A stretch of 64,000 nucleotides of DNA from the NCBI GenBank assembly GCA_964350165.1, contig CAYGJA010000003.1, positions 4,233 through 68,232 of the forward strand, read 5' to 3'. A model generated the notes under the pieces. It had not been told where the DNA came from and ran no database searches. It saw only the letters and a list, made by a program, of their open reading frames with translations. The stretch is from an uncultured Candidatus Saccharibacteria bacterium (GTDB lineage Bacteria; Patescibacteriota; Minisyncoccia; Phycocordibacterales; UBA1006). This document shows positions 5,014 to 54,202 of this stretch, in pieces; positions within the stretch are counted from its first letter, which is position 1, and each line of letters starts with the position of its first letter. A program made the position numbers and the translations under genes.

Positions 5014-5059
5014 AAAACAAATCCCCCGCAAAGCGAAAGCTTTGCGGGGGATTTGTTTA
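5014..5059. terminator. Bidirectional intrinsic terminator between the tRNA-Cys unit (+) and tRNA-Leu(TAA) (-)
   Basis: Perfect inverted repeat AAACAAATCCCCCGCAAAGC-gaaa-GCTTTGCGGGGGATTTGTTT: a 20-bp stem flanked by A/T runs on both sides. Confidence 0.75.
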
Positions 5060-5065
5060 AAAATG

Positions 5066-5150
5066 TGCCGGAGGCGGGACTTGAACCCGCACGCCGTATA
5101 AGGGCAAGGGATTTTAAGTCCCCCGTGTCTACCGATTCCACCACCCCGGC
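5066..5150 (-). tRNA. tRNA-Leu (anticodon TAA), type II with long variable arm, 85 nt
   Basis: Minus-strand sense: GCCGGGG-TGGTGGAATCGGTAGACACG-GGGGA-CTTAAAA-TCCCT-TGCCCTTATACGGCGT-GCGGG-TTCAAGT-CCCGC-CTCCGGC-A. Anticodon loop CTTAAAA gives UAA. Confidence 0.85.
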
Positions 5151-5214
5151 AAGGTTTCGGTACGAGCAGTATGCTAGAAACGTCAGGGATATTCAAGCGG
5201 TATACTTAAGGACA

Positions 5215-6663: not shown

Positions 6664-6736
6664 CCGCTCGTAGCTCAGTTGGTAGAGCAGCTGGCTCTTA
6701 ACCAGACGGTCGTAGGTTCGAATCCTACCGGGCGGA
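6664..6736 (+). tRNA. tRNA-Lys (anticodon CTT), 73 nt
   Basis: Acceptor CCGCTCG/CGGGCGG (one G.U); D arm GCTC-AGTTGGTA-GAGC; anticodon loop CTCTTAA gives CUU; T arm GTAGG-TTCGAAT-CCTAC; discriminator A. Confidence 0.8.
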
Positions 6737-6799
6737 CACGTCCGCCCGGAGCCAACCAAGCACCGAGCGGAAGTAGTCAATTTTTTGACAATAAAAGAT

Positions 6800-6884
6800 G
6801 CCGGAGTGGTGGAATTGGTAGACACGCTTGCCTTAGGAGCATGTGGGGTAACCCGTGCTGGTTCGAGTCCAGTCTCCGGCACCA
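6800..6884 (+). tRNA. tRNA-Leu (anticodon TAG), type II, 82 nt plus genomically encoded CCA (6882-6884)
   Basis: GCCGGAG-TG-GTGG-AATTGGTAGA-CAC...; anticodon stem CTTGC/GCATG with loop CTTAGGA gives UAG, G37; variable arm TGGGGTAACCCGTG; T arm CTGG-TTCGAGT-CCAG; acceptor 3' TCTCCGGC-A-CCA. Confidence 0.85.
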
Positions 6885-7085
6885 ATGACATTAGGTCTTG
6901 TTCTTTAGAACAGGGCCTTTTGTCATTTTGGCGGGAATGGACGAGAAGGCCGCAGCGGGGCCCCAAGGCGAGACCGAACAGGTCGACCATTGGGGAGCGA
7001 GGCGCGGGCCCGCAGTCCGAGAAATAATGACCGCAGGGAAATATATTTCTCGAGAACATGTGGGCGAGTCCAGTCTCCGGCACCA
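6885..7085 (+). repeat. tRNA-3'-associated element copy 2: ~180 nt GC-rich insert beginning ATGACATTAGGTC directly after the CCA of tRNA-Leu(TAG), followed by a 21-nt direct repeat (7065-7085) of the tRNA 3' end (6864-6884)
   Basis: CGAGTCCAGTCTCCGGCACCA is present at 6864-6884 (T-loop to CCA) and again at 7065-7085. Insert is homologous to copy 1 at 4823-4991. Confidence 0.7.
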
Positions 7086-7118
7086 AAACAAAAACCCTCA
7101 TTTGAGGGTTTTTGTTTT
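7086..7118. terminator. Bidirectional intrinsic terminator (AAAACCCTCA-tt-TGAGGGTTTT flanked by A and T runs)
   Basis: aaaacaaaaaccctcatttgagggtttttgtttt lies between the tRNA/element unit (+) and the 3' end of the minus-strand gene ending at 7142. Confidence 0.7.
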
Positions 7119-7141
7119 GGTTGTTTTATTTATTTCTGGTT

Positions 7142-11626: not shown

Positions 11627-12457
11627 CTACACTCCGCGCAATTGGTCAACGGTACCCTGGATAGCTTCGGCAATCACCCAAGCTCCCAACAGTATGGCCC
11701 CACCAATCACCGCTGCCAACAAGGCTTTCTTGCCGTTCTTTATCTTTTCCTGATTACCACCAGCCGTGACCAACAAGAAGCCCGCATAGATAATCGCCAG
11801 AGCAACCAACGGAATACCAATTACGAATACGATAGTAATCAGTTGACGAATAACGGCAGGTATCGAATCATAAGCAATTGGGTTTTCCAGTAAATCAAAA
11901 GAAAGAGGATCGTCGGCCGACGACGGCGCGGCTGGTTCTGCCCAATTAGCAGGACTGGGGGACCCCCACTGTGCACTTTTGTCACAAGACGTATCGCAAA
12001 AATACCCTAGCTGATTACTAAGATTGACATTGCTCAAACCGGTATTAAGCGCAAGGACTCCATCCACAAAAACCTTTACAGAAACCTTACAAGCAGGAGA
12101 ATTGCTTCCGTTACATTTATCGTCTCCCAAAGTAAAAGCATGTGTGATTACGGTATTAAAAGTTCCCCCGGCAGGGGCCTGAGTAGTCAAGGACCCAATC
12201 TCACCATTACGATTCCAAGCCTCCACTCGGACTACGTTGCCCGTACAATTGTTAGCGTTTACGGTAATGGTGGCGTTTGGTGGATTAATATCCAAATACC
12301 AACCAGTAGCTTGTGAACCATTGGGGCTAATGGTTGCAGAAGAAATCGAACAATTAGGCTGTGCCCAGGCTTCAGCTGTTCCCATGGCAACAGTACCAAT
12401 CACCACCAAAGCAATCCCTATAACGGCAACACCTATTTTTTTAAAAAAAGTCATCAT
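11627..12457 (-). CDS. Secreted protein: Cys-containing ~100-aa ectodomain fused to a C-terminal pilin-like two-helix module (paralog 4)
   Basis: Signal peptide MMTFFKKIGVAVIGIALVVIGTVAMGTAEAWA; ectodomain ...NCTGNVVRVEAWNRNGEIGSLTT...CNGSNSPACKVSVKVFV; C-terminal ...IPLVALAIIYAGFLLVTAGGNQEKIKNGKKALLAAVIGGAILLGAWVIAEAI. Confidence 0.5.
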   Translation of the reverse strand: MMTFFKKIGVAVIGIALVVIGTVAMGTAEAWAQPNCSISSATISPNGSQATGWYLDINPPNATITVNANNCTGNVVRVEAWNRNGEIGSLTTQAPAGGTFNTVITHAFTLGDDKCNGSNSPACKVSVKVFVDGVLALNTGLSNVNLSNQLGYFCDTSCDKSAQWGSPSPANWAEPAAPSSADDPLSFDLLENPIAYDSIPAVIRQLITIVFVIGIPLVALAIIYAGFLLVTAGGNQEKIKNGKKALLAAVIGGAILLGAWVIAEAIQGTVDQLRGV

Positions 12458-14574
12458 AGATCTGGAATATTTAGTAGTGAATAAGCCCCATCAGCACCCA
12501 AGAACCTCAATACTGTTGCCACAAGCAACCAAGCGATAACAACAATAATTAATCCTGTGAAGAATTTTCCAAAAGCACCTTTTGCTTGTTGCAAACGACT
12601 TGGATTCCCCCCACTGGTTAGTATCATTATACCAGTAATGACAGACATCAAACCAGCCAAAGGAATCACCATGAGGAAAATAAAATTAATAATATTAGAA
12701 ATTAATTCTACAAAATAATTATAATTACAGTCGTTTTGACAAGGAACAAGTGGTTTTGTTTGACTATCGTCAGGAACAATTCCAATCTCTCTGAATTCTT
12801 CGAATTCTGCTTCCATCTGCACATCGTCATTCAATTGGATAATGATACCGTTCCCCCTTCCCACTATTTCCATAAGGCTGGTGGTGGCGTTGAATTGTCG
12901 CCAAGCGGCCAAACGCCAACCAGTATTCGGCGTGGCCACAACCTCGATCAAAGACCCTACGGGATACGTCCCCGCCCCGGCAACCGTACCTCCACCAGCG
13001 GGAGTGACGTTAACAGACAGTGTCTTGCTTGTATTAGCGGCAAAATTAGCAATCAATTCCCTGTTCCCCAACATAGTCGCAATTGCTCGCTTGGACGTAA
13101 GTGTGGCGCCATTTTCTAACTCCCAATTCAAGAACTGGTATCCAGTATTTGGAAAGGCGTCGATGTTTACGTCGGAATTAATCGGATAGGTCCCCTCTCC
13201 CTGCACGCGACCGCCAGAAGAATCCACATTACCGTCAGTTTTGATGGTGATTTTTAGGGAATATTCTTTGGCTAATGGATTGGCAGACCAGCGACCAACA
13301 GAAGAAGGCATGTCACAAGCCCCAAAACAATGAAAACCAATTGCATTCATGCTCGTAGTACGGAGCCCCGCTCCACGGCTACTATGCAGAATCCCCAGAG
13401 AGTTAACCGGGGAGACGTCTTCTATTTCTATAAAAAACTGACAAGCTGGAAAAAGACCCAAATCACACCCACCATCCCCCAGGTTGGCTGTCGTAGATAG
13501 CTCCATAATATCCAACGATTGATTGTAGGGATTGCTGGTTAGATCAAAACCAAATAGAGCATCATTAAAATCCAACTCTTGGCTGGAAACAGCAATCGCT
13601 CCCGGCAAAGTAGTCTTGAGACCAATGGTTACTTTTAGTTTTTTGCCATAACAATTCGTTGCAAGCCATTTTATCTCGACCGGCAAGGTTCCTCCATCAT
13701 AGGAAAATAAAAGATTTCCTTGGGGGTCAAAATTAACCGGCCCAATTGTACAATCAGATTGTGTTTGGATATTTCCACCCGAGCTATCAGAAGATGGCAG
13801 ATAGGGCGATATCCCCGAAGCAAAGACAGCCGTCAGAGTGCGATCACTATTGGTAAGCTTGACCTTGATTCGAGGATTAGTCGAAACCCTAACGCCACCT
13901 TCGGTCCATTCCAAAAGATAATTTCCCGGATCGGGTAATGCCTGCACATTGACCTCGGTATCGATAGGGAACGTTCCACCACCAATCGCCCGACCGTCGC
14001 CTTGCGCATTCAGAGCAAGTGTATACGAGGACTGAAACGCCTGGGTGGTAATGGGATTGATGGTGGTAGTGGGAGGAGAGTTACCAGTACCCCTATTGAA
14101 TCCAATAACGTCCTTGCTTGTGGAATACAGGGGAGTGGCTTGGCTTGAAAAAATCTCCACCGATGGCCCATCAGAAAAAGTAAGATAATACTGACATTGA
14201 GGAGACGATCCATCATCCCTACAACCTTCCTCACCAATATTAATAGTGGCATTTTGAAGTTTGACGATGGCATTGGTTGGACCAGTGCCAACAGAAATAG
14301 TTCTGTCTGCAACAATCACATTCCCGAGGGAGGTTCTCCCCCATACGCGCAAATACACCGTTGACCCCTGACAATTGCTCAGGGTGGCATCAAGAGCCAC
14401 TGATCGATTAGTGCGAGTATACCAGGCAGACTGATTACCGGCTGGATCAAGCTTTACCTCAGACACCACACAAGTGTTTTGAGCAAAAGCATCATCGCCA
14501 ACAAAAGTTAGCCCGACAAAAAAACCAATAATTCCGACCAAGGCTATTATTTTTTTGATTACTTGTTTTTTCAT
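12454..14574 (-). CDS. Large secreted protein: two copies of the same Cys-containing ectodomain, three List-Bact/InlB-B-type repeats, C-terminal pilin-like two-helix module (paralog 5)
   Basis: Signal peptide MKKQVIKKIIALVGIIGFFVGLTFVGDDAFA; domain copies ...SNCQGSTVYLRVWGRTSLGNVIV...CRDDGSSPQCQYYLTF and ...ATNCYGKKLKVTIGLKT...CDLGLFPACQFFIEI; repeats GGGTFPIDTEVNVQALPDPGNYLLEWT, GEGTYPINSDVNIDAFPNTGYQFLNWE, GAGTYPVGSLIEVVATPNTGWRLAAWR; C-terminal ...MVIPLAGLMSVITGIMILTSGGNPSRLQQAKGAFGKFFTGLIIVVIAWLLV. Confidence 0.5.
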   Translation of the reverse strand: MKKQVIKKIIALVGIIGFFVGLTFVGDDAFAQNTCVVSEVKLDPAGNQSAWYTRTNRSVALDATLSNCQGSTVYLRVWGRTSLGNVIVADRTISVGTGPTNAIVKLQNATINIGEEGCRDDGSSPQCQYYLTFSDGPSVEIFSSQATPLYSTSKDVIGFNRGTGNSPPTTTINPITTQAFQSSYTLALNAQGDGRAIGGGTFPIDTEVNVQALPDPGNYLLEWTEGGVRVSTNPRIKVKLTNSDRTLTAVFASGISPYLPSSDSSGGNIQTQSDCTIGPVNFDPQGNLLFSYDGGTLPVEIKWLATNCYGKKLKVTIGLKTTLPGAIAVSSQELDFNDALFGFDLTSNPYNQSLDIMELSTTANLGDGGCDLGLFPACQFFIEIEDVSPVNSLGILHSSRGAGLRTTSMNAIGFHCFGACDMPSSVGRWSANPLAKEYSLKITIKTDGNVDSSGGRVQGEGTYPINSDVNIDAFPNTGYQFLNWELENGATLTSKRAIATMLGNRELIANFAANTSKTLSVNVTPAGGGTVAGAGTYPVGSLIEVVATPNTGWRLAAWRQFNATTSLMEIVGRGNGIIIQLNDDVQMEAEFEEFREIGIVPDDSQTKPLVPCQNDCNYNYFVELISNIINFIFLMVIPLAGLMSVITGIMILTSGGNPSRLQQAKGAFGKFFTGLIIVVIAWLLVATVLRFLGADGAYSLLNIPDL

Positions 14575-21965: not shown

Positions 21966-22187
21966 TTCTATGGGTCGAATTCAACATCACCTGATCACAT
22001 CCTTTGTTCGCCTTCTTACCATACACCATGTATGCACTTGTACACTATGCACACATGGATTTTTGCTTTTTTAACGATAAAAGCATCGGGCTGACGTTTC
22101 GCGTCATAACAGCCATCACGCTATTGCAACAGTGCAATAATCGACCGATTCGGCCTCAGTGAGCAAGCTCATCTGGGCTTTATATCG

Positions 22188-23637
<1,450 letters not shown>

Positions 23638-23867
23638 ACTGGAAGATGAACCATAAATGGTTCATCGTATAGTAAGAAGACGAACAAAAAATGTCATTCG
23701 CCAACTTAATCAAAATTAAACTGGATTGTTTAGACTCTCTCCGGCGAGAGAGTCTGTGATGCTGAATTGTCAAAGTCCTTCGCGACCCATTCGTATGGGG
23801 CAATTCAAAAGAAAAGACCCACTGCAATCAGTCGTGTGGCCAGTATATAGAGTTACAGAAATGTGTC

Positions 23868-25110: not shown

Positions 25111-25230
25111 GATTCAATTGTTAGAGTGAAACTTGCAGCGAAAAATACGCCCTGATGGCGTATTTGTCAAAAATTTTTTTCTACAACACAAAACCGCGCT
25201 CGAAATGAACGCGGTTTTTTATAAAAAAAT

Positions 25231-26793
25231 TTATACCTTCACCCAAAACCCTTCGTCGGGAAAGGGTCCGGGTATTTTTTTGAACCCAAAGTCGCCCAGA
25301 TCATAGGTGACCCCACCCATCTGGGCCTCGAGGTCTGGCCAACACAGGACCACCCCCCCAGAGGGGACCACTCGGGCTATGTTCGCGAGCAGACTGAGTC
25401 GGTAGAGCTCATTAGGACCCTTTTCTGGGACACTAATGTCATCCATGCCGCCAAGGATGACTATCGGCAAAGACTCGTCTGCAGCCTCTACTAGATGGGT
25501 GAGCATGTCCCCATTTTGAACACTGATCTTGGGAGTAATCATCTTGCTCTCTGCATTGATATCAACCCCCACAAATTCTGCCTGCGGGGCATATTTTTGA
25601 AGGGTTTCGGCGAAACTTTTGAACTCCTCCTCTTTAGACCCACAAGCCAGAGTAGTGATTACTCGAGCTCCAGAGAGGGTTTTTTTCAATATTTGGGCAC
25701 CCTCTTTTTGTTCAACGAGGATTCTATCAAAATACCCTTTGTCGTACCCTTGCCCCGAATAAGACAAGAGAGGAGGTACCAGGTTCGAACGCGCCTCGCT
25801 CAAAGACGGGATTTGAACTTCATCCAATTCTCCCAAAAAAGCCCGCAAGGTGCTTCCTAGTTTTACCCAGGACTCCTCCCCGCTTCGTCTCAGCCAGCGA
25901 GAGACTTCCATAACTTGTGACCAGCTGCCTTTAACCCCCTCCATAATTTGTTCGCCTTTGTAGTAGGCGGTGCCTATCACAAGAAACCCGATGATGGCCT
26001 CGACCTGATCGGGACTAAGCTTGGGGCCCCTGGGTTCTCTCTCTTGAGAATACTCCTCTAGACCCCTCATCAGGTCGTTATCTAGAGCGTGGTTCCAGAT
26101 ATCATCTAGCTCCTGACGCTCCTTTTCGTCAAGTTCTTGGGCCAACAACGTTCCAGCCGTTATCCCAACTGCGGCTGTCGTCGCGGTCCCGTATCCTTCC
26201 ACCACCCCCCTCACATACTCTCGCAAACCCAAACCCATCACGGTGAGGGTAAAAGCTCCGGCGGCTGCGAGGGCAGGTCTAGAGTCCCGCATAATCAGGG
26301 TGGTGGCCAAAGCCTCTTCTGTGGCCATCTTTCCAACGCCATCCATAAAATCAGTTGGAGTTAGAGGAAGAGCCTCGGCCACTTCCCAAACGGTAGTGTC
26401 TTGCAAGAACTGCAGGTCCACCATAACCACTGGCTGGTGGTTTTTGGGTGGATTCGTGGCCGTCTTGTACAGACAAACCCATTGTGGTTCGCCTGCTTCA
26501 TTGATCCCGCTCATCCAGAGCGTATCAATGGTTACGGGCCCCACCGACCTGGTGGTACCCCCCAGAATATGGTCCAAGTGGGCTGTCACCCCACTTTGGG
26601 CAATTTGCCGAGTGGTCTGGGCCGAAGCCGCTAGAGGGACATAGACCCTGCTGGCAGCCCCGGGACACTTTGCACACCTGTTTCCCGCGGTCCCAAAGGG
26701 GACCTGGGCTAGGGTGGTCGTAGATAGAAAGAAAAGCAAGGTGGCCACGAGGGTGGCCGAGCGGAGGAAATTTTTTTTTTCCATTTTTTCCAT
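25231..26793 (-). CDS. Secreted multi-domain protein A: signal peptide plus ~190-aa N-terminal domain shared at near-100% DNA identity with 29951-31861; C-terminal domain unknown
   Basis: MEKMEKKNFLRSATLVATLLFFLSTTTLAQVPFGTAGNRCAKCPGAASRVYVPLAASAQTTRQIAQSGVTAHLDH... The same 190 aa occur in the 636-aa protein. The C-terminal part (...FVGVDINAESKM...VVPSGGVVLCWPD) is vaguely Rossmann/methyltransferase-like and is not called. Confidence 0.45.
   Translation of the reverse strand: MEKMEKKNFLRSATLVATLLFFLSTTTLAQVPFGTAGNRCAKCPGAASRVYVPLAASAQTTRQIAQSGVTAHLDHILGGTTRSVGPVTIDTLWMSGINEAGEPQWVCLYKTATNPPKNHQPVVMVDLQFLQDTTVWEVAEALPLTPTDFMDGVGKMATEEALATTLIMRDSRPALAAAGAFTLTVMGLGLREYVRGVVEGYGTATTAAVGITAGTLLAQELDEKERQELDDIWNHALDNDLMRGLEEYSQEREPRGPKLSPDQVEAIIGFLVIGTAYYKGEQIMEGVKGSWSQVMEVSRWLRRSGEESWVKLGSTLRAFLGELDEVQIPSLSEARSNLVPPLLSYSGQGYDKGYFDRILVEQKEGAQILKKTLSGARVITTLACGSKEEEFKSFAETLQKYAPQAEFVGVDINAESKMITPKISVQNGDMLTHLVEAADESLPIVILGGMDDISVPEKGPNELYRLSLLANIARVVPSGGVVLCWPDLEAQMGGVTYDLGDFGFKKIPGPFPDEGFWVKV
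26197..26775. repeat. Copy 1 of a ~580-bp near-identical direct repeat (N-terminal domain coding region of protein A); partner at 31274-31852
   Basis: Antisense six-frame ORFs 26243-26644 and 31320-31721 are identical (MRVKAPAAARAGLESRIIRVV...AEAARGT), as are 26401-26634 and 31478-31711. Identity begins at ...ccaccacccccctcacatactctcgcaaaccc and runs to the start-codon region. Confidence 0.85.
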
Positions 26794-26939
26794 AAGTACA
26801 GATATATCGGAATTTTACCCTTCCGATGGGGTTTTTGATTTAGAATGAGGTGTACGTTACATTTGCTTGTTTGTCAATATAAAAAACACCCTGCACAGTA
26901 TTATTTTGCAGGGTGCTGGCTTGTTTTCACAAGCATATT

Positions 26940-29816
26940 TTAGGGCCAAAACAAGTAGCCCTTTCTTTGCATGGGAGGAAGCGGGCTACCCCGATCTTCG
27001 AGATCTTCCATATCCAATACGTAGACAAATTTTTTGCCTTTTGGATATCGAAAACTGAAGACAAGGTCTCCATGTTCCGTCCCCTCTAGAGCGCTCAGGC
27101 CCCTCTTATCAAAGACTCCGAATAGACTAACCTTCATCTGCCAAGTAGCTGGCAAATGAATACAGCTTTTCTTCTTGAGAATCTGTTTGGAGATCTTTCG
27201 AACATCTTCTAGATACTCGCCATCTTCGGCGACAGTGTAATCCCAAAAGAGCTCATCTCGAACAGAGCCTAGACCCCAATCCAGGATCTTTAGCTCGCCG
27301 GTGGACACAGAAACAAGGATGTTCCACAGTCTGATATCGCCGTGTGCCACCCCAATTTTCTTCATTTTGTCTTGGAGATCATTGGCAAATTCTATTGCCT
27401 TTTGACCATCCAGTAACCCCTCTTCGACGGCTCGATTGAAAGGAAGATATCCACTCATTCGTTCCATAAAAAGATAGGACTCTCCGGTTGAAAGCCGAAC
27501 CAAACCAAAAGGCTTTGGAGTGGCTATTTTTCCCTCATAGGCCAAGCTTTGGCGTTGATACTCCGCCACGGGCCCTCCTTTGACCAAACGATGGCCAAAT
27601 TTGAACCTTTTGGCCACTACGCCCATATCTTCAAAACCGTACATGACGGAGGAGACTCCCCCGTTGGCGGTGTCGGCCAGTTGATAAGCCGTTCCTCCCG
27701 GCTGAATCTGCTTGAAAAAATCAAGCAAATCTTCCTTATCGTACCCATGATCAAAACCAGAGACATCAACATATGTCTCCACTGGGCCAAATCCAGACAA
27801 AGCAAGTCTGGTTACGGTGTTCCCATGACCACGCAGATAAAACATCTCCATGGTAACTCGGTTGACCAGGAAGCCAGCCTCTTCTACTCCCTCGAGGAAG
27901 AAGAAGACAAATTGGCCCGCCTTCTTGGCTCGGAGCTCATTACCGGCGTCGACACTTAAACCAAACCTGCTAAGGATACTTGCTTTTATAAACGAAGCAG
28001 TAACCTCTGTTTGGCCTTTCTTTCGGGGCAAATCCTCGACGTAGAATGCCTCGGATTTTCCGAAATTAACGGGTAGAAGGAACCGACTTCGCTCCAGGTC
28101 TTTTCCTAGGGCCTGTCTAAGAAGGGCTACGCCCCCGTCGGCAAGGGCCTTTTTTTCTGCTGGAAACGACTGCAGTTTCCACTGCCGGGAAAGTTCCAGC
28201 AGGTTTTGATAAAAAACCTGGTCAATTCCTGCAACATCACCCCTTCTTCTGTCTAACTCATTGACAAGAAGGCGGAGATTATGCCCGCGAACACCCTCTC
28301 CCAACACATGCGACCAAGCATACAGATACCGGGTCGTCTTGCTGTCGAAAGACACGTCCTCATAAAAGAACTCTTGAAACCACATCTCCCAAATGTAGTT
28401 CCCGTTACGAAAACGCCAGTGAAAAGATTCGGCATTCCCTGACTCCAAAATCAACCCAGCCATGTATTGGCTGATCTCGCTTTCTTCCCAGGTCCTGACA
28501 CCTTGAGAAGTGAGACTGACCGAGTAATCAACCTCTATCACTCTGTGGCTGACATACTCTCCAAAGAGACTAATTCGCTCTAACAGTCCTTGATATCGGG
28601 GATCGTAGAGCGAGTAAAGCTCTTCGGCCAGAAAGAGGTTCGCCAGAGCTTTAACCGCTCCCCAAGAAGAAATTCCTGGCTTTTCCGGGTCTGGATCATT
28701 TTGGCGATTCCCTTTGTGTCTAAGTACACGCCGGTAGGCATCCAGGGCCCTTTGGATCGCCTCTCTGTTCTTCTGATTGGTAATTTCTTGCCGCAGAAGC
28801 TCCTCTAGCGCCTGACTGATGTCGGGAAGATCTTCTCCTATTCGCCTAGACACTTCTTCGTCCCCCATGCCACGGAGACGCTCGATGGTAAGGCGAGCTG
28901 CTTCTGTGCCTCCAGACAAGAGGGCTGCATTGCGTGCTGCCCACTCTCCGAAACGGAAAATGTTATGCCATAGAATCTGGGCATCGACTTCGTCGTACAT
29001 TCTCCAGGCAACGTAGGTAACCGGTGCGGCCACCACACAAAAAGCCGCTGTGGTCATAGTAGTTGCTCCAGTCGTCGCCACAATATCCTTAAGGACCATT
29101 TTTCCAGCCTGGAAAGCTAGAATTCTTACAACCACACGCTGTGCTAAAGCTTCTTCTAGCCCGAACTGCAGGTATGTTCCAAGGATAGGCGCATTAGCAA
29201 AAGCCATTGAAGCCGGATAAGGGCTTCTTTTTTGCTCGAACTCCCACTCTGTTGAGTTTATTCTTACATAAACCCCCCTTGATCCTTCTTGGCCAAAATC
29301 TCTTGGCCGAAAAGGCTCTCCCGAAAGAGTAAAGACTAGACGATTTTGTCCGTCAATGACCGGCCGAGGTGATTCTCCGGAGAACTCCTCCATAATGAGC
29401 TCTGGGAAATAAAAAGTCGCCCCAGCGGAGGAATTTTCGTTTTTCGTTCTGATGAACGAAAAACTCGTGTCTGGCCCAGTATTCTGAGCAAAAACTATCC
29501 CACCCATCTGCATTACCCAAGTAGGGTGTAGTTCAGACAAGGGCACCCCAACTAAGGTGGTGTCACCCCCCTCCTTCTCTTTCATTTGACCCACAATCCA
29601 GTCTCCTGGAAAGAGCTGGATTTGTTTGTCTTCTTCCAGAAAGGTCATACGGCCTGAGTCATGCGCGAACGCATAACCGCCAACCAAAAAAAGTCCTACG
29701 AGCAGAATCCCTCCTGCGAGGACAAAAGAGAATTTGTTCTTATGTAACATTACGTTAACTGGTCCCGATTTTTCCCTCGTGACTAAGGGTTTTGTTTTTA
29801 AAAGAAAAACCGACAA
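26940..29816 (-). CDS. Large membrane-anchored secreted protein B with a C-terminal protein-kinase-like (Kdo/WaaP/APH-like) domain
   Basis: TM anchor FSFVLAGGILLVGLFLVGGYAFA (likely real start Met at 29750); C-terminal ...AEYQRQSLAYEGKIATPKPFGLV...KKIGVAHGDIRLWNILVSVSTGELKILDWGLGSV has the H.D...N.lv...iDxG catalytic/Mg-binding arrangement. Confidence 0.45.
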   Translation of the reverse strand: MSVFLLKTKPLVTREKSGPVNVMLHKNKFSFVLAGGILLVGLFLVGGYAFAHDSGRMTFLEEDKQIQLFPGDWIVGQMKEKEGGDTTLVGVPLSELHPTWVMQMGGIVFAQNTGPDTSFSFIRTKNENSSAGATFYFPELIMEEFSGESPRPVIDGQNRLVFTLSGEPFRPRDFGQEGSRGVYVRINSTEWEFEQKRSPYPASMAFANAPILGTYLQFGLEEALAQRVVVRILAFQAGKMVLKDIVATTGATTMTTAAFCVVAAPVTYVAWRMYDEVDAQILWHNIFRFGEWAARNAALLSGGTEAARLTIERLRGMGDEEVSRRIGEDLPDISQALEELLRQEITNQKNREAIQRALDAYRRVLRHKGNRQNDPDPEKPGISSWGAVKALANLFLAEELYSLYDPRYQGLLERISLFGEYVSHRVIEVDYSVSLTSQGVRTWEESEISQYMAGLILESGNAESFHWRFRNGNYIWEMWFQEFFYEDVSFDSKTTRYLYAWSHVLGEGVRGHNLRLLVNELDRRRGDVAGIDQVFYQNLLELSRQWKLQSFPAEKKALADGGVALLRQALGKDLERSRFLLPVNFGKSEAFYVEDLPRKKGQTEVTASFIKASILSRFGLSVDAGNELRAKKAGQFVFFFLEGVEEAGFLVNRVTMEMFYLRGHGNTVTRLALSGFGPVETYVDVSGFDHGYDKEDLLDFFKQIQPGGTAYQLADTANGGVSSVMYGFEDMGVVAKRFKFGHRLVKGGPVAEYQRQSLAYEGKIATPKPFGLVRLSTGESYLFMERMSGYLPFNRAVEEGLLDGQKAIEFANDLQDKMKKIGVAHGDIRLWNILVSVSTGELKILDWGLGSVRDELFWDYTVAEDGEYLEDVRKISKQILKKKSCIHLPATWQMKVSLFGVFDKRGLSALEGTEHGDLVFSFRYPKGKKFVYVLDMEDLEDRGSPLPPMQRKGYLFWP

Positions 29817-29950
29817 CAGTCGGCATGTTTAAAAAATAAAACCTTATTTAGGTCTGTATGTCAAATATCCCTAAACAAAAACCCGCTCATAATAAAAAAT
29901 ACCAAAAAAGCCATGCACGATGAGCGCACGGCTTTTTAAAACTCAGCCCA

Positions 29951-31861
29951 TCACTTATTTTTTGGTGGTTCGTGGTGGTAGCCGTAGACAGCTACCGAGA
30001 TGGTGCTGCTCTCTATAGCTACGTGAAACCCACTCGACCAATTGGGTTTCCCATAAACAGGAACCGCATCTAGGTACCGATTGGACAACACAATCCAGGA
30101 CTTCTTCACTTCATCCCAGAAAGGCTCCGAAGACCATTGCCCTCCTTCTTCTAACTGCCGTACTCCAACCTTGTCCACATACCGCTTCTTGTCTGAGTGG
30201 TCTATCCACAGGAGCTGTGGTTGATTGAAAGAATTTCGCATCATTCGCTGATACCTTATCAGCTGAGCCATCGACTCGCTGGCAATCGGGCTTGGAAACG
30301 ATACCACCCTGCCTAGATCAACCATCCACACCTTTCCTTGATAGTCCACCATAAAATTGTACGGATGACCGTCTCCGTTCCCATATCCGGCCTCGTGAAG
30401 GTTGTGGAAAATAACCATGGTTTGGCTCAAGAGGCCAGCCCTGGTGATTTGCCCACCCCACTCCTTTTCAATGTCGACATCTGACCAGGACAAGACATCT
30501 CCTAGGCGGTATCCCTGAATTCTGTCAAAAAGAATTCCTTCTCCATACTTAGAAGCAACATATCCAATGGCCCGCGGGGTAGGTATCCCTTTTCTTGCCA
30601 AAAGGTTGGCCAAATGCCCCTCGACATAGGGACGATTTCCGTCCGGGTCTGTGATGAGGACGACCTTGAGAATATAATTTTTCCTCGGGTCCTCTTTGTA
30701 GCCTTGGGCGTACCCAACAACCCTACTATAAAAGCCAGCACCTATCTGTGCGCCATCTTTTGCATAAAGCGCTAGGTACTCTTCAAGGAGTAAATGTCTC
30801 TCTTCCATGGATATTTCTCCTGGATAACCAATGTACTGGCGAAAGACCACTTTTCGATCTCCCGAAGATTCTGCCCCCACTGTGGTGGCGGCTACATCCA
30901 TATCCATGCACTCCCTGACACAATCAGGAGTTCCTGGGATGACATATTCTCCTCCCGTAACCAGAAGAGAATCTTGTGTAATCCACCAAGAACTCTTGGC
31001 TTGCAAATGCTGGCAATCCCAGCATTTTTTGTGCTGTTCCAGCACTCTTGCCACATCTGCGTCCAGCTCGTCCTGGACCAAGTCATCCAGCCACTCATAC
31101 GCGCTGTACGCATTGAGCAGATCCTTTAGCCAAGCTGGTAAAAAAGGGCCTTGTGGTGGCTCTGGCGCGAAGCTGGGCGATGATGGCTCCGGTAATGCAA
31201 TCGGCGGGGCTGGTGTCAAGGGCACAGTAATTCTTCCAGGAAAACTTGGCCCATTTCGAAAAGAAACGCGATCTTCCACCACCCCCCTCACATACTCTCG
31301 CAAACCCAAACCCATCACGGTGAGGGTAAAAGCTCCGGCGGCTGCGAGGGCAGGTCTAGAGTCCCGCATAATCAGGGTGGTGGCCAAAGCCTCTTCTGTG
31401 GCCATCTTTCCAACGCCATCCATAAAATCAGTTGGAGTTAGAGGAAGAGCCTCGGCCACTTCCCAAACGGTAGTGTCTTGCAAGAACTGCAGGTCCACCA
31501 TAACCACTGGCTGGTGGTTTTTGGGTGGATTCGTGGCCGTCTTGTACAGACAAACCCATTGTGGTTCGCCTGCTTCATTGATCCCGCTCATCCAGAGCGT
31601 ATCAATGGTTACGGGCCCCACCGACCTGGTGGTACCCCCCAGAATATGGTCCAAGTGGGCTGTCACCCCACTTTGGGCAATTTGCCGAGTGGTCTGGGCC
31701 GAAGCCGCTAGAGGGACATAGACCCTGCTGGCAGCCCCGGGACACTTTGCACACCTGTTTCCCGCGGTCCCAAAGGGGACCTGGGCTAGGGTGGTCGTAG
31801 ATAGAAAGAAAAGCAAGGTGGCCACGAGGGTGGCCGGGCGGAGGGAATATTTTTTTTTCAT
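29951..31861 (-). CDS. Secreted multi-domain protein C: same N-terminal domain as protein A, followed by a protein-kinase-like (Kdo/WaaP lipopolysaccharide-kinase-like) domain
   Basis: MKKKYSLRPATLVATLLFFLSTTTLAQVPFG... (shared domain); C-terminal ...PYVEGHLANLLARKGIPTPRAIGYVASKYGEGILFDRIQGYRLGDVL...IFHNLHEAGYGNGDGHPYNFMVDYQGKVWMVDLGRV matches the Kdo/WaaP family (GvptP.pva...llte.i.g..l ... H..G..HgD.h..N.lv....iDfg). Confidence 0.5.
   Translation of the reverse strand: MKKKYSLRPATLVATLLFFLSTTTLAQVPFGTAGNRCAKCPGAASRVYVPLAASAQTTRQIAQSGVTAHLDHILGGTTRSVGPVTIDTLWMSGINEAGEPQWVCLYKTATNPPKNHQPVVMVDLQFLQDTTVWEVAEALPLTPTDFMDGVGKMATEEALATTLIMRDSRPALAAAGAFTLTVMGLGLREYVRGVVEDRVSFRNGPSFPGRITVPLTPAPPIALPEPSSPSFAPEPPQGPFLPAWLKDLLNAYSAYEWLDDLVQDELDADVARVLEQHKKCWDCQHLQAKSSWWITQDSLLVTGGEYVIPGTPDCVRECMDMDVAATTVGAESSGDRKVVFRQYIGYPGEISMEERHLLLEEYLALYAKDGAQIGAGFYSRVVGYAQGYKEDPRKNYILKVVLITDPDGNRPYVEGHLANLLARKGIPTPRAIGYVASKYGEGILFDRIQGYRLGDVLSWSDVDIEKEWGGQITRAGLLSQTMVIFHNLHEAGYGNGDGHPYNFMVDYQGKVWMVDLGRVVSFPSPIASESMAQLIRYQRMMRNSFNQPQLLWIDHSDKKRYVDKVGVRQLEEGGQWSSEPFWDEVKKSWIVLSNRYLDAVPVYGKPNWSSGFHVAIESSTISVAVYGYHHEPPKNK
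31274..31852. repeat. Copy 2 of the ~580-bp near-identical direct repeat (partner 26197-26775)
   Basis: Identical antisense six-frame ORFs. The conserved 5'UTR motif atatcggaattttacccttccgatggggttttt is present at ~26801-26840 and ~31870-31905. Confidence 0.85.
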
Positions 31862-31976
31862 AATCCAAACATATCGGAATTTTACCCTTCCGATGGGGTT
31901 TTTTGTGGAAATTTAAAATGAAAATAAGCCCAAAAGGCTTATTTGTCAAAATTTGTATTTTGTTTTGTAATTTTAT

Positions 31977-34001: not shown

Positions 34002-34586
34002 TCAGCGCATCATCCTGGCATGTTTTCTATTGAGGCGCCGGCAGGTAGTATCCGGCCAGATCAGCTTGAGCCGAGCACGAAATGAGCGAGACGGCCAGAG
34101 TGCGGGGAAGGTGTATTTTTCCCATCTGTGTCCTTTCTCTTCTTCGAGCCAAAGAGATCTGGACCACTCGCTCATTGGCAGCGAAATCTGCCAATCCCTG
34201 AAGCATCCACCCCTAATATGGATCGTGATGATTGTTTTTCCATAAGTGGCATGAGAAAAAACCATCACTATCTGGGCGCTGTTCCCGTTCAGCTGAGAAG
34301 TTTCTTGGACCTCCCAAAACCGAGCAGACTTGGAGCGGGTACCCCAAACCTGGGTTTCCTCATCAGGAATGGCAAACTTGCCCCAGCGGCTAGTCCTCAT
34401 CCGAACTCTCCCGCCATGAGCCTGGTACAAACGCAAATCCAGATCTAGCTTGTCCCCCGCATCCAGAAAATAATGGTGTCGGCCGGACTCGTCCAGGGAC
34501 ACCTGGTCTCGAATGGTTTTCCCCCAGCACATCGCCGGCAAGAAAACCAAAACCACTAATAAGGTTAATAAGGTTTTCGTTTTCAT
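34002..34586 (-). CDS. Hypothetical secreted protein
   Basis: Signal peptide MKTKTLLTLLVVLVFLPAMCWG; no motif recognised. Confidence 0.35.
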   Translation of the reverse strand: MKTKTLLTLLVVLVFLPAMCWGKTIRDQVSLDESGRHHYFLDAGDKLDLDLRLYQAHGGRVRMRTSRWGKFAIPDEETQVWGTRSKSARFWEVQETSQLNGNSAQIVMVFSHATYGKTIITIHIRGGCFRDWQISLPMSEWSRSLWLEEEKGHRWEKYTFPALWPSRSFRARLKLIWPDTTCRRLNRKHARMMR

Positions 34587-34687
34587 AGGCAATGATATTT
34601 TCGTGACTATACCTTCTTTTTTAAAATAACCAAACAAAAACCCGCCATGATGGCGAGTTTTTGTGGGTATAAATTAGGAGTTTTGGA

Positions 34688-48517: not shown

Positions 48518-50434
48518 CTATATTTTATTTTTATACAAATCAACCGCATAATCACGCCACCAGGTACCAGCATTGGGTCCCCCATTACAGTACCCATCGG
48601 ATTCACCAGGGGTTTTGATCCAGAGATTAGCGTCGTGAGAACCAGCAAAAACAAATCCTGGCACTTCACCCAGACCTCTACCCCACGGGTTACACCACTC
48701 ATATACAGGGCTTTGCCCTTGACCGTTACGACTAGTGTCAACAACATACCCTTTTCCACCTAGCAACGCACTTAAATTGTCCCCGTATTTCTTTGTATCG
48801 ACAGTTCGAACATAGTTAGAAACGTTAAGAGCAAAGCCCCGAGCCATTTTAATGTTAACCAATTGCAATCTCTTTGACATCTCCTTGGCATCTACCCAAA
48901 ACGCATGTCCAGCATCAATATACACATAAGAATTATCAACCGTAGACAATGTCGTTACGGCATAATTAATTGCGTCAATTCTTCTTTGCTGAGAATCAGA
49001 ATCCAAACAATTAAGCATTGCGAGCGCGTCAGGTTCTACAATAAAAACGGCGTTTTCTGTTGTTGCCTGTTTTATCTGATCAATCCAAGAACGATACGCC
49101 TCATAAGAATTTGCCCCACCAGAGGAATACAGACCACAATCACGCTGAGGAATATTATAAAGAACAAACACCGGTATCACATTGTCTAATCGAGCAGCCA
49201 ACATTGCTCGCTCAATTAGCTTAAAATCATAAGAATTCCCGTTTAGCCAAGTTGATTGCGGTTGACTACTAATATAATTTAACGCACTCAGAACTTCGGA
49301 AGGAGCACCAGCCATGCGTGCTTGTCTCAAATCAGACTCTATGGCTGGTTTTTCAGCAAAATACAGACCAGAGACATTTCCCCAGTCCTCCAATTTTTTA
49401 GCGCTAGAAGCAAGAGGGGCGCTTTTTTTTACAGTATCAGACACGACAACCTCATCTTGATTCTGAGGGATGTCTGGTTGCAATATTCCACCTTGAGCCA
49501 AAATTCCCCCACTTTCTTGAACAGGATTTGTATTTTCACCAATATCAACCTGCCCATCAAGACCTTCAAGGATTACATCGTTGCCATTTTGACGACGAAA
49601 AGTTAGTTCAATCTGTGATAGGCGTTCTCCGGAAATATTTTCAAATATGAGAGTAATAGGATAGGGCCCTTCTCCCTTCCACCACCAGCCAGAAAAATTA
49701 ATTGACAAAATAGGGTTGCCAAATTCATCACGCTTGTTCACGATGTTTTCGTGTCCACCCTCAACACTCCAATACACATTAAAATCACGAGCATCTAGAT
49801 CGGCAATATCGACAAGCACGTCTTGTGTTATCCAGTCTTTTTTTTCTTGTGTTAGCCAGACAAGCCGTGCTTTCCCCTCCTTTGCACTACTAACACCGGC
49901 GACGATTGGCTTGGGTTTGTCTCCCTCCTCTCCTGTCAAGATATTTTTTGAGCGAGGCAGTTGAGCATTCGGTTCGGCTTGAACTTTTTTGGTTTCTGTA
50001 CTGATACTCACCAAATCTTGCTCAATGGTATAGACGACTCGGCGAGAACTGGCAACTTCGACGCCGTCTTGGTAAGCATGAAAAATAACTTCATACCGAT
50101 TGTCTTTTCTCCAATTCCAATCATCAACAACAACACTGTCCGTGTAGTTAATGCCGTCAAAACCAAGAACTCCGCTACGAACACCCCCATCCACAGACCA
50201 ACGAAATTCATCAGCGCCACTTTTTAATAGGGGTCGAACACGAAAGGTTTGAGTCCCTGACACATAGACATTATCCAAGGGCAAAACAATCCCGAGATCT
50301 TCTGATAAAAAATTACCACCAAGATCCGTCTCCACAGAGCCAAAGCGATAAATCGCCATAGTCAGCAGAAACAACAAAGAAAGCACTAGCACACTTTCCT
50401 TTACTAATTTTTTTGTAATTCTACCTATCTTCAT
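48518..50434 (-). CDS. Secreted glycoside hydrolase family 6 (cellulase/cellobiohydrolase-type) with ~300-aa N-terminal accessory region
   Basis: C-terminal half: ...VFVLYNIPQRDCG..., ...FIVEPDALAMLNC..., ...YIDAGHAFWV..., ...NVSNYV..., ...VDTSRNGQG..., ...LWIKTPGESDGYCNGGPNAGTWW... These match the GH6 blocks (YxIPxRDC, EPDSLAN, YxDAGHAGW, NVSNY, IDTSRNG, WIKxPGESDG). N-terminal signal anchor present. Confidence 0.8.
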   Translation of the reverse strand: MKIGRITKKLVKESVLVLSLLFLLTMAIYRFGSVETDLGGNFLSEDLGIVLPLDNVYVSGTQTFRVRPLLKSGADEFRWSVDGGVRSGVLGFDGINYTDSVVVDDWNWRKDNRYEVIFHAYQDGVEVASSRRVVYTIEQDLVSISTETKKVQAEPNAQLPRSKNILTGEEGDKPKPIVAGVSSAKEGKARLVWLTQEKKDWITQDVLVDIADLDARDFNVYWSVEGGHENIVNKRDEFGNPILSINFSGWWWKGEGPYPITLIFENISGERLSQIELTFRRQNGNDVILEGLDGQVDIGENTNPVQESGGILAQGGILQPDIPQNQDEVVVSDTVKKSAPLASSAKKLEDWGNVSGLYFAEKPAIESDLRQARMAGAPSEVLSALNYISSQPQSTWLNGNSYDFKLIERAMLAARLDNVIPVFVLYNIPQRDCGLYSSGGANSYEAYRSWIDQIKQATTENAVFIVEPDALAMLNCLDSDSQQRRIDAINYAVTTLSTVDNSYVYIDAGHAFWVDAKEMSKRLQLVNIKMARGFALNVSNYVRTVDTKKYGDNLSALLGGKGYVVDTSRNGQGQSPVYEWCNPWGRGLGEVPGFVFAGSHDANLWIKTPGESDGYCNGGPNAGTWWRDYAVDLYKNKI

Positions 50435-50474
50435 GAATATTACAGGATATCACATCAAAAACTAAATCTCGCCA

Positions 50475-51521
50475 CTACAAAAGTTCTGGGTTTTTAAGTT
50501 TTAACAAACCCCGCAAATCTTTTACCTTGTGAACAGAGTCCCGATGAACAATCAAAAGAGCATCTGGGGTTTCTACCACATAGATATCCTGAACACCAAC
50601 CACCGCAATATGTTTTGTGGCACCATGAGTCAACGTTCCCAAAGCATCAACATAAGTCACGTTAGCATTTTCACATACAAAATCTTTCTCTTTTGATGGA
50701 TTCTGCAATTCAAGTAACGAGCGCCAGTTGCCAACATCACTCCATCTCATTTCTGTTTTCACAACACTCTGCTCTTTTTTGTGAACGGTATACAAATCTT
50801 CAATCGAACCGCTAGGCATAGTTGAGAAAATCTTATCTATATCTGTTGTATCAACAGAATACAAACTCTCGACTTCTTCTAAAAAGTTTCGAGCCTTCAT
50901 TACCTTGTAACCAGTATTCCACAAATAGCGACCTGATTTTACAAATTTTTTAGCCTTACTGTATTTTGGTTTTTCTAAAAATTTTTTCACTCCGTACACA
51001 TCACCCAATCCTTTTCTCGTTATTTTTATGTATCCAAAACCTATCTCAGGATAATACGGTTTAGTTCCTACAGAAACAAGCTCTTCTGGGTTACGTTCAA
51101 CGCGGGAAAAAGCATTAATCAGGGCGTTTTCAAATAAGTCTTCATCAAAAATATAGTGGTCTGACCAGACAACAGCGACCTGCGCGTCAGGATTACGACG
51201 ATAAATATCTGATATTCCCAAAACAATCGCAGGAAAATTATCCTTACGCTCTGGCTCGATAATAATCCGGTCATTAGATACTAAGGGTAGCTGCTCGCGA
51301 ACATGTTCAGAAAAATCTTGATTGCAAACGGTAATCACTTTTTCACTTCCAACAAGACGAGAACAGCGACCCTCCATCAGCTGAAATAAGCTCTTGCTGT
51401 TATCAAAAATCTGATGAAACTGCTTAGGAAAGCACTCGCGAGACAAAGGCCAAAGCCGACTGCCTACACCACCCGCAACCAAGAGAATATACCGATCTTT
51501 GCTTTTATCTTTTGCGTCCAT
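50475..51521 (-). CDS. Sugar-1-phosphate nucleotidyltransferase (mannose-1-phosphate guanylyltransferase-like, ManC/CpsB family)
   Basis: ...YILLVAGGVGSRLWPLSRECFPKQF... N-terminal NTP_transferase motif; 348 aa. Confidence 0.7.
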   Translation of the reverse strand: MDAKDKSKDRYILLVAGGVGSRLWPLSRECFPKQFHQIFDNSKSLFQLMEGRCSRLVGSEKVITVCNQDFSEHVREQLPLVSNDRIIIEPERKDNFPAIVLGISDIYRRNPDAQVAVVWSDHYIFDEDLFENALINAFSRVERNPEELVSVGTKPYYPEIGFGYIKITRKGLGDVYGVKKFLEKPKYSKAKKFVKSGRYLWNTGYKVMKARNFLEEVESLYSVDTTDIDKIFSTMPSGSIEDLYTVHKKEQSVVKTEMRWSDVGNWRSLLELQNPSKEKDFVCENANVTYVDALGTLTHGATKHIAVVGVQDIYVVETPDALLIVHRDSVHKVKDLRGLLKLKNPELL

Positions 51522-51522
51522 A

Positions 51523-54198: not shown

Positions 54199-54202
54199 GA
54201 TC

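Follow-up and report, generated by a model that had tools for sequence, protein, structure and literature searches.

Introduction

In Helicobacter pylori, babA/babB and the related hop genes reportedly undergo intragenomic gene conversion between outer-membrane-protein paralogues. Polymorphic toxins (CDI/CdiA-CT, Rhs, and LXG) join a conserved N-terminus sharply to different C-termini within one genome, and bacterial sensor proteins share the same outer module among different cytoplasmic enzymes. PknB/PASTA proteins and the eukaryotic type I receptor kinases combine an extracellular domain with an intracellular kinase domain, and WbdD of Escherichia coli O9a is a bifunctional methyltransferase-kinase. 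Here, we describe a locus that resembles each of these systems in part. It lies in a 64-kb stretch of DNA from an uncultured bacterium of the candidate phyla radiation (CPR) (64,000 nucleotides of contig CAYGJA010000003.1, hereafter the window) and includes two genes, A and C, which share a perfect 564-bp repeat encoding an N-terminal module and continue into unrelated back ends, with a third gene, B, between them. The best explanation is that A and C are orphan envelope proteins that form a mosaic pair; as an instance of mosaic paralogues, the locus is real but fairly ordinary.

As in the hop genes of H. pylori, A and C are envelope-protein paralogues at separate chromosomal sites, in which near-identical 5' segments including the signal peptide appear homogenized while the rest is different, and a simple-sequence tract lies near the 5' end. 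Unlike in the hop genes, the variable parts are unrelated enzyme-like domains and not variants of one adhesin fold, there are two copies only, and no switching was observed; moreover, the proteins are orphans and come from a CPR bacterium. The sharp joining of a constant N-terminus to different C-termini recalls polymorphic toxins, but the locus has no recognized trafficking domain, toxin fold, downstream immunity gene, or orphan cassettes, and the family is confined to this genome. As in sensor-module sharing, the junction lies just past a putative transmembrane (TM) helix and the same outer module would accompany different cytoplasmic enzymes. However, here the sensor domain cannot be placed in any known family, the output domains (a kinase core of the Bud32/RIO/Kdo-like kind and possibly a methyltransferase) are not a histidine kinase, GGDEF, or MCP domain, and the sharing is between two genes of one genome, where it would be maintained by conversion.

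The predicted single-pass arrangement, with an extracellular domain and an intracellular kinase-like domain, is that of PknB/PASTA and of the eukaryotic type I receptor kinases. PknB has an N-terminal kinase and outer PASTA repeats, whereas here the kinase-like domain is C-terminal, in the order of the eukaryotic receptor kinases, and there is no PASTA match. The core is closer to small atypical kinases (Bud32, RIO, Kdo, and ABC1) than to Hanks-type kinases, with scores under the family cut-offs. Lastly, WbdD is a weak PDB match to the kinase region of C, and the locus likewise pairs a kinase-like with a methyltransferase-like protein; the E-values are 0.2–0.3, the domains are in separate proteins, and a polysaccharide-export context does not adjoin them. 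We take this likeness as a lead only.

Results

A perfect repeat between diverged flanks

The BLASTN comparison of the window with itself returned the 564-bp repeat as the sole long repeat within the 64 kb, without a third copy. The two copies lie at a fixed offset of 5,077 bp and show 0 mismatches (Table 1), and residues 13–199 of A are identical to residues 10–196 of C. Over the longer gapped alignment (26196–26836 against 31273–31903, 642 columns), identity is 97.5% with six gap openings. The near-identical duplication noticed in a first-pass annotation of this DNA is thus real, with only the ends adjusted: the ranges given there (26197–26775 and 31274–31852) exceed the perfect tract by about 16 nt, which hold three substitutions. 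The "identical antisense ORFs" (open reading frames) of its six-frame track are the other strand of the repeat and no evidence of genes.

The two edges of the repeat are very different. The 3' edge is abrupt: similarity falls to random directly after REYVRGVVE, and two unrelated back ends follow, in agreement with the earlier view of a common N-terminal module set on different C-termini. On the 5' side, homology continues beyond the perfect tract, and the order in gene orientation is promoter (possibly), a conserved 33-nt motif, diverged leader, diverged first codons, and 564 nt of identity. In the first 27 coding nucleotides, counted from the second ATG of A, the genes differ at four positions, all non-synonymous (MEKKNFLRS versus MKKKYSLRP). 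Gene A starts with a perfect 9-bp tandem duplication (26776–26793, ATGGAAAAA twice, encoding MEK-MEK), and therefore has a choice of two start codons in the same frame. Most of the 10-nt register shift that separates the leaders of A and C is due to this duplication; translation of A may begin at the second ATG (26784, 517 aa). About half of the bases are changed in the 9–10 nt of leader between the 33-nt motif and the start codon, and the region 5' of the motif has about 61% identity, reaching into the promoter.

This unevenness is unlikely to be due to chance. The tract has 0/564 differences, versus 6/34 aligned bases in the adjacent stretch (plus 10 gap columns, the stretches being 44 and 34 nt long in A and C; Fisher's exact test, p = 2e-8) and 4/27 in the adjoining codons alone (p = 3e-6). 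Selection on the protein cannot erase synonymous differences over 187 codons, so the tract must be younger than its flanks. Of the two origins proposed at first pass, ongoing gene conversion agrees with these counts, whereas a very recent duplication as the sole explanation does not, because the diverged homology of leader and promoter shows the pair to be older than the tract. The perfect tract is best explained by a partial duplication of older date, followed recently by gene conversion. The GC content at third codon positions is 0.61 in the repeat, versus 0.40–0.55 in the ten further gene segments for which it was measured; this difference would fit GC-biased conversion, although as evidence it is weak.

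Support from independent assemblies

Other sequencing runs yielded Logan contigs that match the window at 100% identity. One (L001, from ERR3534981, 2 samples) covers window positions 31302 to 26807, that is, the body of C, then B, then the leader of A; two others (L002, from ERR3535002, and L003, from ERR3534997) begin at 26225, cover the unique part of A, and continue into the neighboring NhaA gene. Each of the three ends exactly 30 nt (k − 1) inside the 564-bp repeat or the 33-nt motif, at the point where a de Bruijn graph with k = 31 must branch if two continuations exist. Since independent assemblies show two different downstream exits of the repeat, it is no mis-join, the error that would have undone the earlier reading. 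If unique segments are used once, the only linear path is C leader, repeat, C body, B, A leader, repeat, and A body.

This independent support spans the segment from the C body through B to the A leader and that from the A body to NhaA; the junction between the gene of a peptidoglycan-binding protein and the C leader is outside it. No read spans a whole copy of the repeat, and the evidence for both copies consists of independent short-read assemblies that show both exits and the continuity between them. Proteins identical to A (P0003), B (P0001), and C (P0002) are on record from one NCBI genome, where they lie on a contig of 111,559 bp.

The shared N-terminal module

In the module common to A and C, a signal peptide precedes an orphan domain, in which about 145 residues include three cysteines (CAKC among them), and a marginal hydrophobic helix comes next, followed by REYVRGVVE. 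The signal peptide is classical: its n-region is basic, its h-region is TLVATLLFFLSTTTL, and its site is TLA/QV; in C, it reads MKKKYSLRPA-TLVATLLFFLSTTTLA/QV. Codons 2–5 of A and C hold, on the coding strand, an A10 run (26771–26780) and an A9 run (31850–31858), respectively. These are the only homopolymers of at least 9 nt in the window, where the other 20 long A/T runs all stop at exactly 8 nt. They may serve phase variation by slipped-strand events, or may do no more than encode the KKK of the signal-peptide n-region.

Among 1.84 billion cluster representatives, an exhaustive HMMER search found the module only in A and C. Two further matches (P0004 and P0005) are giant repeat proteins in which a stretch of 36–40 residues is matched many times; we regarded them as compositional or repeat artifacts, which hint at most at a beta-hairpin of the type "..TLWxxAxDxxGxxxxWxxxxxT". 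Residues 1–199 have no Pfam or NCBIfam match even at E ≤ 10, and the defense and phage libraries PADLOC and PHROGs gave nothing meaningful, with chance-level kinase-loop matches only. Scans of genome, viral, and metagenome contigs contain no further copies; additional cassettes with the same N-terminal domain, for which a search was suggested at first pass, were thus found neither in the window nor in these collections. A word-index search with the 196-aa N-terminal domain also gave no match, although A and C are in the same collection; that negative is unreliable, and we relied on HMMER.

Kinase-like cores in C and B and the back end of A

C and B both carry a kinase-like core. The catalytic loop, (H/N)GD....N, and a DFG-like D.G motif are in the correct order and spacing and are invariant in the alignment between B and C. 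Pfam Pkinase matches B with E = 1.2e-5 (25.3 bits, cut-off 31.7) and APH matches it with E = 6e-4, while C has weak Pfam matches to APH (the best, 14.9 bits, cut-off 23.2), RIO1, and ABC1. Among NCBIfam models, C matches the Kdo kinase at 0.007, and B matches Bud32 and, very weakly, the Kdo kinase. In the PDB, the kinase region of C matches the ABC1 and WbdD kinases. A profile built from the two sequences B and C matched 416 PDB sequences at E ≤ 1, the best 60 of which are all protein kinases aligned over the segment from catalytic loop to DFG; the best match is 8k20_B, a Ser/Thr kinase chain of 226 aa (6.5e-4). Candidate beta3 lysines are those of YILKV in C and VVAKRF in B, where the alignment is not confident.

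In C, a CxxC-N33-CxxxC segment (KKCWDC ... DCVREC, residues 252–297, 30970–31108) lies between a Pro-rich linker and the kinase-like core. It has no match among the families searched and is, judging from its cysteine pattern, a candidate module for zinc binding. The N-terminal part of B is distinct, with a signal peptide or anchor of its own (GGYAFA/HD), an unrelated ectodomain of about 200 aa, an Ala/Thr-rich hydrophobic segment, and a long helical region before the kinase-like core; the recorded protein P0001 is 100% identical to B and starts at MLHKNKF. A second hydrophobic segment is found at a comparable position in A, B, and C; in B, this candidate TM segment comprises residues 245–269 of the 958-aa ORF (223–247 from the ATG).

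The back end of A can be assigned more weakly. Its C-terminus matches Ubie_methyltran with E = 0.065 (13 bits, cut-off 20.1) over profile positions 46–151, from motif I to post-III; motif I is degenerate (TLACGSKE), and a low-confidence model has a beta-alpha-beta pattern at residues 377–484. These data weakly suggest a methyltransferase-like Rossmann domain. Homologue searches with the C-terminus of A, with B, and, in JGI metagenome contigs, with the C-terminus of C returned only the own protein or nothing.

We also considered A, B, and C as full-length paralogues and rejected the idea, as Smith-Waterman scores against shuffled sequences were unconvincing (z = 1.3 to 2.9). Past the junction, A and C have in common only a short LDD(I/L)....LD.D..R.LE similarity, which 3/200 shuffles equal in score.

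The 33-nt leader motif and transcription signals

The 33-nt motif ATATCGGAATTTTACCCTTCCGATGGGGTTTTT occurs exactly twice in the window, upstream of both starts as first noticed, ending 10–13 nt ahead of the first start codon of A and C; 0 occurrences are expected by chance even at ≤3 mismatches. It is perfect between flanks of about 82% and about 61% identity, for which the chance is 6e-4 at a per-site identity of 80%. Its hairpin, with a free energy of −8.5 kcal/mol, was the centroid in each of four folds; the same bases are also overlapped by a CCC/GGG pairing as an alternative, and on the opposite strand the element resembles a weak terminator. No Rfam 15 family matches it at the gathering score, and at E ≤ 5 the only Rfam match is a chance-level one to potC on the opposite strand (22.6 bits, gathering score 44). 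The motif is absent from the JGI metagenome contigs searched.

The –10 box of C (31921–31926) places the motif a few nucleotides into the transcript. The simplest reading of the motif is a functional cis element common to A and C. It would act either as a stem-loop in the mRNA or, being an inverted repeat that follows the promoter, as an operator in the DNA, and would place A and C under the same control. The co-regulation proposed earlier is compatible with this perfect conservation, whereas the hairpin invoked for it is of unremarkable stability.

A, B, and C each have their own TTGACA box and their own terminator-like hairpin and therefore appear to be three separate transcription units. 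The promoter region of A can be aligned by eye with that of C, at low identity. A near-copy of the promoter-like site of C precedes the NhaA gene (25142–25170).

Two further observations concern these signals. The promoter-like sites of NhaA (25142–25180) and C (31921–31959) have in common a 39-nt element, TTGACAAATA-[GC-rich hairpin]-TATTTT, with 79% identity, and in both the spacer between the –35 and –10 boxes is a stem-loop that resembles a terminator for the upstream gene. The leader of B holds a terminator-like hairpin with a T-run (29809–29824, GCCGACTGTTGTCGGT TTTTCTTTT) between its TTGACA box (29859–29864) and the ATG (29750). This hairpin may be an attenuator, and it overlaps the upstream TTG that a mechanical ORF list takes as the start.

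Table 1. Positions of genes A, B, and C and of their parts in the 64-kb window
Feature	Position	Strand	Description
Gene A, 520 aa	25231..26793	-	Shared N-terminal module, helical region, weakly methyltransferase-like Rossmann region
Gene B, 936 aa from ATG	26940..29750	-	Between the repeat copies; TTG-extended 958-aa ORF to 29816
Gene C, 636 aa	29951..31861	-	Signal peptide, shared ectodomain, hydrophobic helix, Pro-rich linker, CxxC...CxxxC segment, kinase-like core, ~100-aa tail
Perfect repeat, gene A copy	26196..26759	-	Codons 13–199 plus one base past the reading-frame boundary
Perfect repeat, gene C copy	31273..31836	-	Codons 10–196
Diverged homologous stretch of A	26760..26803	-	First codons, 9-bp tandem duplication, A10 run, 10 nt of leader
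Diverged homologous stretch of C	31837..31870	-	First codons with A9 run, 9 nt of leader
33-nt conserved leader motif of A	26804..26836	-	mRNA strand AAAAACCCCAUCGGAAGGGUAAAAUUCCGAUAU; 7-bp stem AUCGGAA/UUCCGAU, 8-nt loop
33-nt conserved leader motif of C	31871..31903	-	Identical to that of A
Hydrophobic helix, candidate TM	A 26224..26280 (residues 172–190); C 31301–31357 (residues 169–187)	-	RPALAAAGAFTLTVMGLGL; 19-residue Kyte-Doolittle mean 1.28, marginal
Kinase-like core of C	30227..30679	-	About residues 395–545; YILKV, E..L..KGIPTP, NGDGHPYN, VDLG
Kinase-like catalytic segment of B	27252..27572	-	Residues 749–855 of the 958-aa ORF; HGDIRLWN, LDWG
Promoter-like site of A	26849..26877	-	TTGACA-17-TACACC, weak –10; read from the sequence, unlisted by the promoter scanner
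Promoter-like site of C	31921..31949	-	TTGACA-17-TATTTT, embedded hairpin
Terminator-like hairpin after A	25187..25220	-	AAAAAACCGCG...CGCGGTTTT
Terminator-like hairpin after B	26881..26915	-	CACCCTGCA...TGCAGGGTG TTTTTT
Terminator-like hairpin after C	29905..29937	-	14-bp stem plus T-run

Host and other features of the window

The host is a Parcubacteria-like CPR (Patescibacteria) bacterium without Shine-Dalgarno use. A GroEL fragment of 153 aa, searched against 185,579 species-representative genomes, has its best matches in metagenome-assembled genomes of Paceibacterota (69%) and Saccharibacteria (65%), and no close relative is among them. The GroEL-anchored loci of the nearest genomes show no synteny with the window and hold no homologue of A, B, C, NhaA, the peptidoglycan-binding protein, a LysM-like protein, MscL, or the 211-aa ORF at 34002–34637. 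The 16S rRNA gene (22187–23644, minus strand; 1,458 nt versus a model of 1,533 positions) stands alone, and no 23S or 5S rRNA gene was detected in the window. Its 3' end (22187–22230, ...GGAAGCUGGUCGUAGAACAACUCAAAC) is without the CCUCC anti-Shine-Dalgarno motif, and GGAGG, GAGG, or AGGA occur in the 30 nt upstream of the start codon in 0/28 genes inspected. Loss of the anti-Shine-Dalgarno motif has been reported in a subgroup of Parcubacteria (PMC9297842), and the absence of both CCUCC and Shine-Dalgarno-like sequences fits this known pattern. Several of the inspected genes have a TATAAT-like box about 10–20 nt from the ATG, which suggests short or absent leaders.

Elsewhere in the window, two adjacent genes (11627–14574) encode proteins with a C-terminal type IV secretion system (T4SS)-pilin domain (PF18895), one of which has three divergent InlB B-repeat (Flg_new_2) domains; these probably form surface filaments, as similar proteins do in many CPR bacteria. 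Like the unlinked 16S rRNA gene and other features of the window, T4SS-pilin-domain proteins are usual in this group. A polysaccharide cluster (48518–56401) includes a GH6 protein, a nucleotidyl-transferase, a 904-aa fusion of a PMT-type glycosyltransferase with GH8, and a 732-aa GT2 (cellulose-synthase-like) protein. Two self-complementary palindromes of 40–44 nt (91–95% complementarity), at 5015–5058 and 7082–7121, adjoin tRNA genes; the tRNA genes are tRNA-Leu (5065–5150) and tRNA-Lys plus tRNA-Leu (6664–6884). Near them, a 530-aa ORF without family match (5053–6645) overlaps the tRNA-Leu gene on the other strand.

Discussion

The simplest history that fits the data has two steps. In the first, an older partial duplication would have put the first 196–199 codons of one gene (signal peptide, the ectodomain of about 145 aa, and hydrophobic helix), together with leader and promoter region, onto the body of another gene, with an illegitimate fusion junction after REYVRGVVE; the abrupt 3' edge is probably this original junction. 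The copies would then have diverged in promoter, leader, and the first 12 codons. In the second step, a recent intrachromosomal conversion between the direct repeats would have wiped out the differences over 564 bp, to the end of homology.

As regards the proteins, A and C (and B by analogy) would be membrane proteins of type I: the signal peptide would be cleaved off, the orphan domain would lie outside, and one TM helix would connect it to an enzyme domain inside. Adenosine triphosphate (ATP) and S-adenosylmethionine (SAM) are cytoplasmic cofactors, and a CxxC-type arrangement as in C is typical of intracellular zinc sites. The type I topology is favored because the module ends nine residues past the helix, the back ends resemble ATP- and SAM-using folds, the candidate zinc motif of C is of the intracellular type, and B repeats the same order of parts. 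Membrane anchoring with cytoplasmic C-termini thus seems more likely than full secretion. The term "secreted" in the first-pass annotation agrees with the good signal peptides, but the hydrophobic helix that ends the module and the ATP- and SAM-type folds point to anchoring. One external recognition module would then be coupled to two cytoplasmic outputs, kinase-like in C and methyltransferase-like in A, and gene conversion would keep the modules of A and C recognizing the same thing. To the whole of this account (duplication, conversion, leader element, and type I receptor-like proteins with different enzyme domains), we give a somewhat better than even chance of being correct.

Several results weigh against it. 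The interior identity of both copies rests on one short-read-based assembly, in which a few real differences could have been collapsed. The helix is marginal as a TM segment: it is Ala/Gly/Thr-rich, and its 19-residue Kyte-Doolittle mean of 1.28 is under the classic value of 1.6. All family matches of the back ends are under the curated cut-offs, so we call B and C kinase-like and not members of a named family. For A, searches of PDB sequences find no methyltransferase, and the comparison with the window's own methyltransferase (E = 0.31) aligns only at the PGG motif. The AlphaFold models of full-length C and A are unusable (mean pLDDT 32 and 38) because no homologues are available for the alignment, and they yield no fold for the shared domain or for the C-terminus of A. 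Moreover, the hairpin of the 33-nt motif does not exceed shuffled sequence in stability (z = −1.0 to −1.2). The significance of the motif comes from its conservation alone, and this perfect conservation could also reflect a second, separate conversion patch.

The alternatives fare less well on the same observations. That the repeat is an assembly artifact, whether through collapse or mis-joining or as a chimera of strains with one of the two genes each, is hardly credible: the assembly is of the metagenome type and 564 bp exceed the short-read length, but independent assemblies of several runs reproduce both exits, the continuity from the C body through B to the A leader, and that from the A body to NhaA at 100% identity, the two copies have their own, differing 5' flanks, and no linear path other than the assembled order takes in all segments. 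A single very recent duplication without conversion, in which identity would simply mean youth, would account for the perfect tract and its sharp 3' junction. We consider it very unlikely, because the homology on the 5' side has diverged (the four changes in 27 coding nucleotides, the 9-bp duplication, the half-changed leader, then the perfect 33-mer and about 61% identity onward), and one event cannot yield 0% and about 18% divergence in adjoining segments. Direct repeats of 564 bp are efficient RecA substrates, and the A9 and A10 runs are placed where slippage would act on the first codons of C and A; the locus could therefore be imagined as a recombination switch for surface variation, in which the repeats would allow deletion or amplification of the 4.5 kb formed by the C body, B, and the A leader and the homopolymers would turn expression on and off by slipped-strand events. 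This has a very slight chance of being right, as the KKK of the n-region explains the A-runs without switching, no variant junctions or length variants exist among the recovered Logan contigs (all identical to the window, none covering the A9/A10 tracts), and no invertase, reverse transcriptase, or silent cassette is nearby.

It is also unlikely, in our opinion, that A and C are modular secreted effectors, with the shared N-terminus as an export, targeting, or host-binding module and kinase- and methyltransferase-like C-termini that act on the host bacterium of the episymbiont. The clear Sec-type signal peptides of A and C and the marginal helix would suit such a role, CPR bacteria live attached to their hosts, the window encodes T4SS-pilin-domain surface proteins, and secreted bacterial kinases exist, such as YopO, which is among the PDB matches of the B and C profile. 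However, no known trafficking class (LXG, WXG100, PAAR, Rhs/YD, TPS, MuF, and others) or toxin domain was found with Pfam, NCBIfam, PADLOC, and PHROGs. No immunity-like small ORF follows A or C, where a terminator precedes NhaA or the 936-aa B, respectively. The module occurs in only two proteins among the 1.84e9 representatives, with no further cassettes in the window, and ATP and SAM are absent outside cells unless the proteins are injected. B, in addition, repeats the layout of signal peptide, ectodomain, hydrophobic segment, and kinase with a different ectodomain. The earlier comparison with polymorphic toxin/effector or surface-variation systems, then, found no backing in trafficking or toxin domains, immunity genes, silent cassettes, or recombinases, and anchored mosaic paralogues homogenized by conversion remain the account that we prefer.

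A bolder version of the preferred account is that A, B, and C are founders of an unrecognized Patescibacteria class of type I receptor-like proteins with atypical kinase and methyltransferase outputs, in which one module for recognition of a host or ligand would be wired to two enzymes, homogenized by conversion, placed under private co-control by the 33-nt element, and possibly switched through A9/A10. We regard this as decidedly unlikely. CPR bacteria depend on contact with host cells, and to our knowledge almost nothing has been described about envelope sensing and signaling in them. As it stands, the locus is mainly a clean and well-supported instance of a familiar evolutionary process in genes of unknown function, and experiments might be worthwhile only for its possibly receptor-like architecture and its private leader element. 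If the topology holds, A and C would be a compact, testable example of one extracellular module feeding two cytoplasmic enzymes, and direct evidence for an active role of gene conversion (homologous recombination) in shaping the surface-protein genes of a reduced CPR genome.

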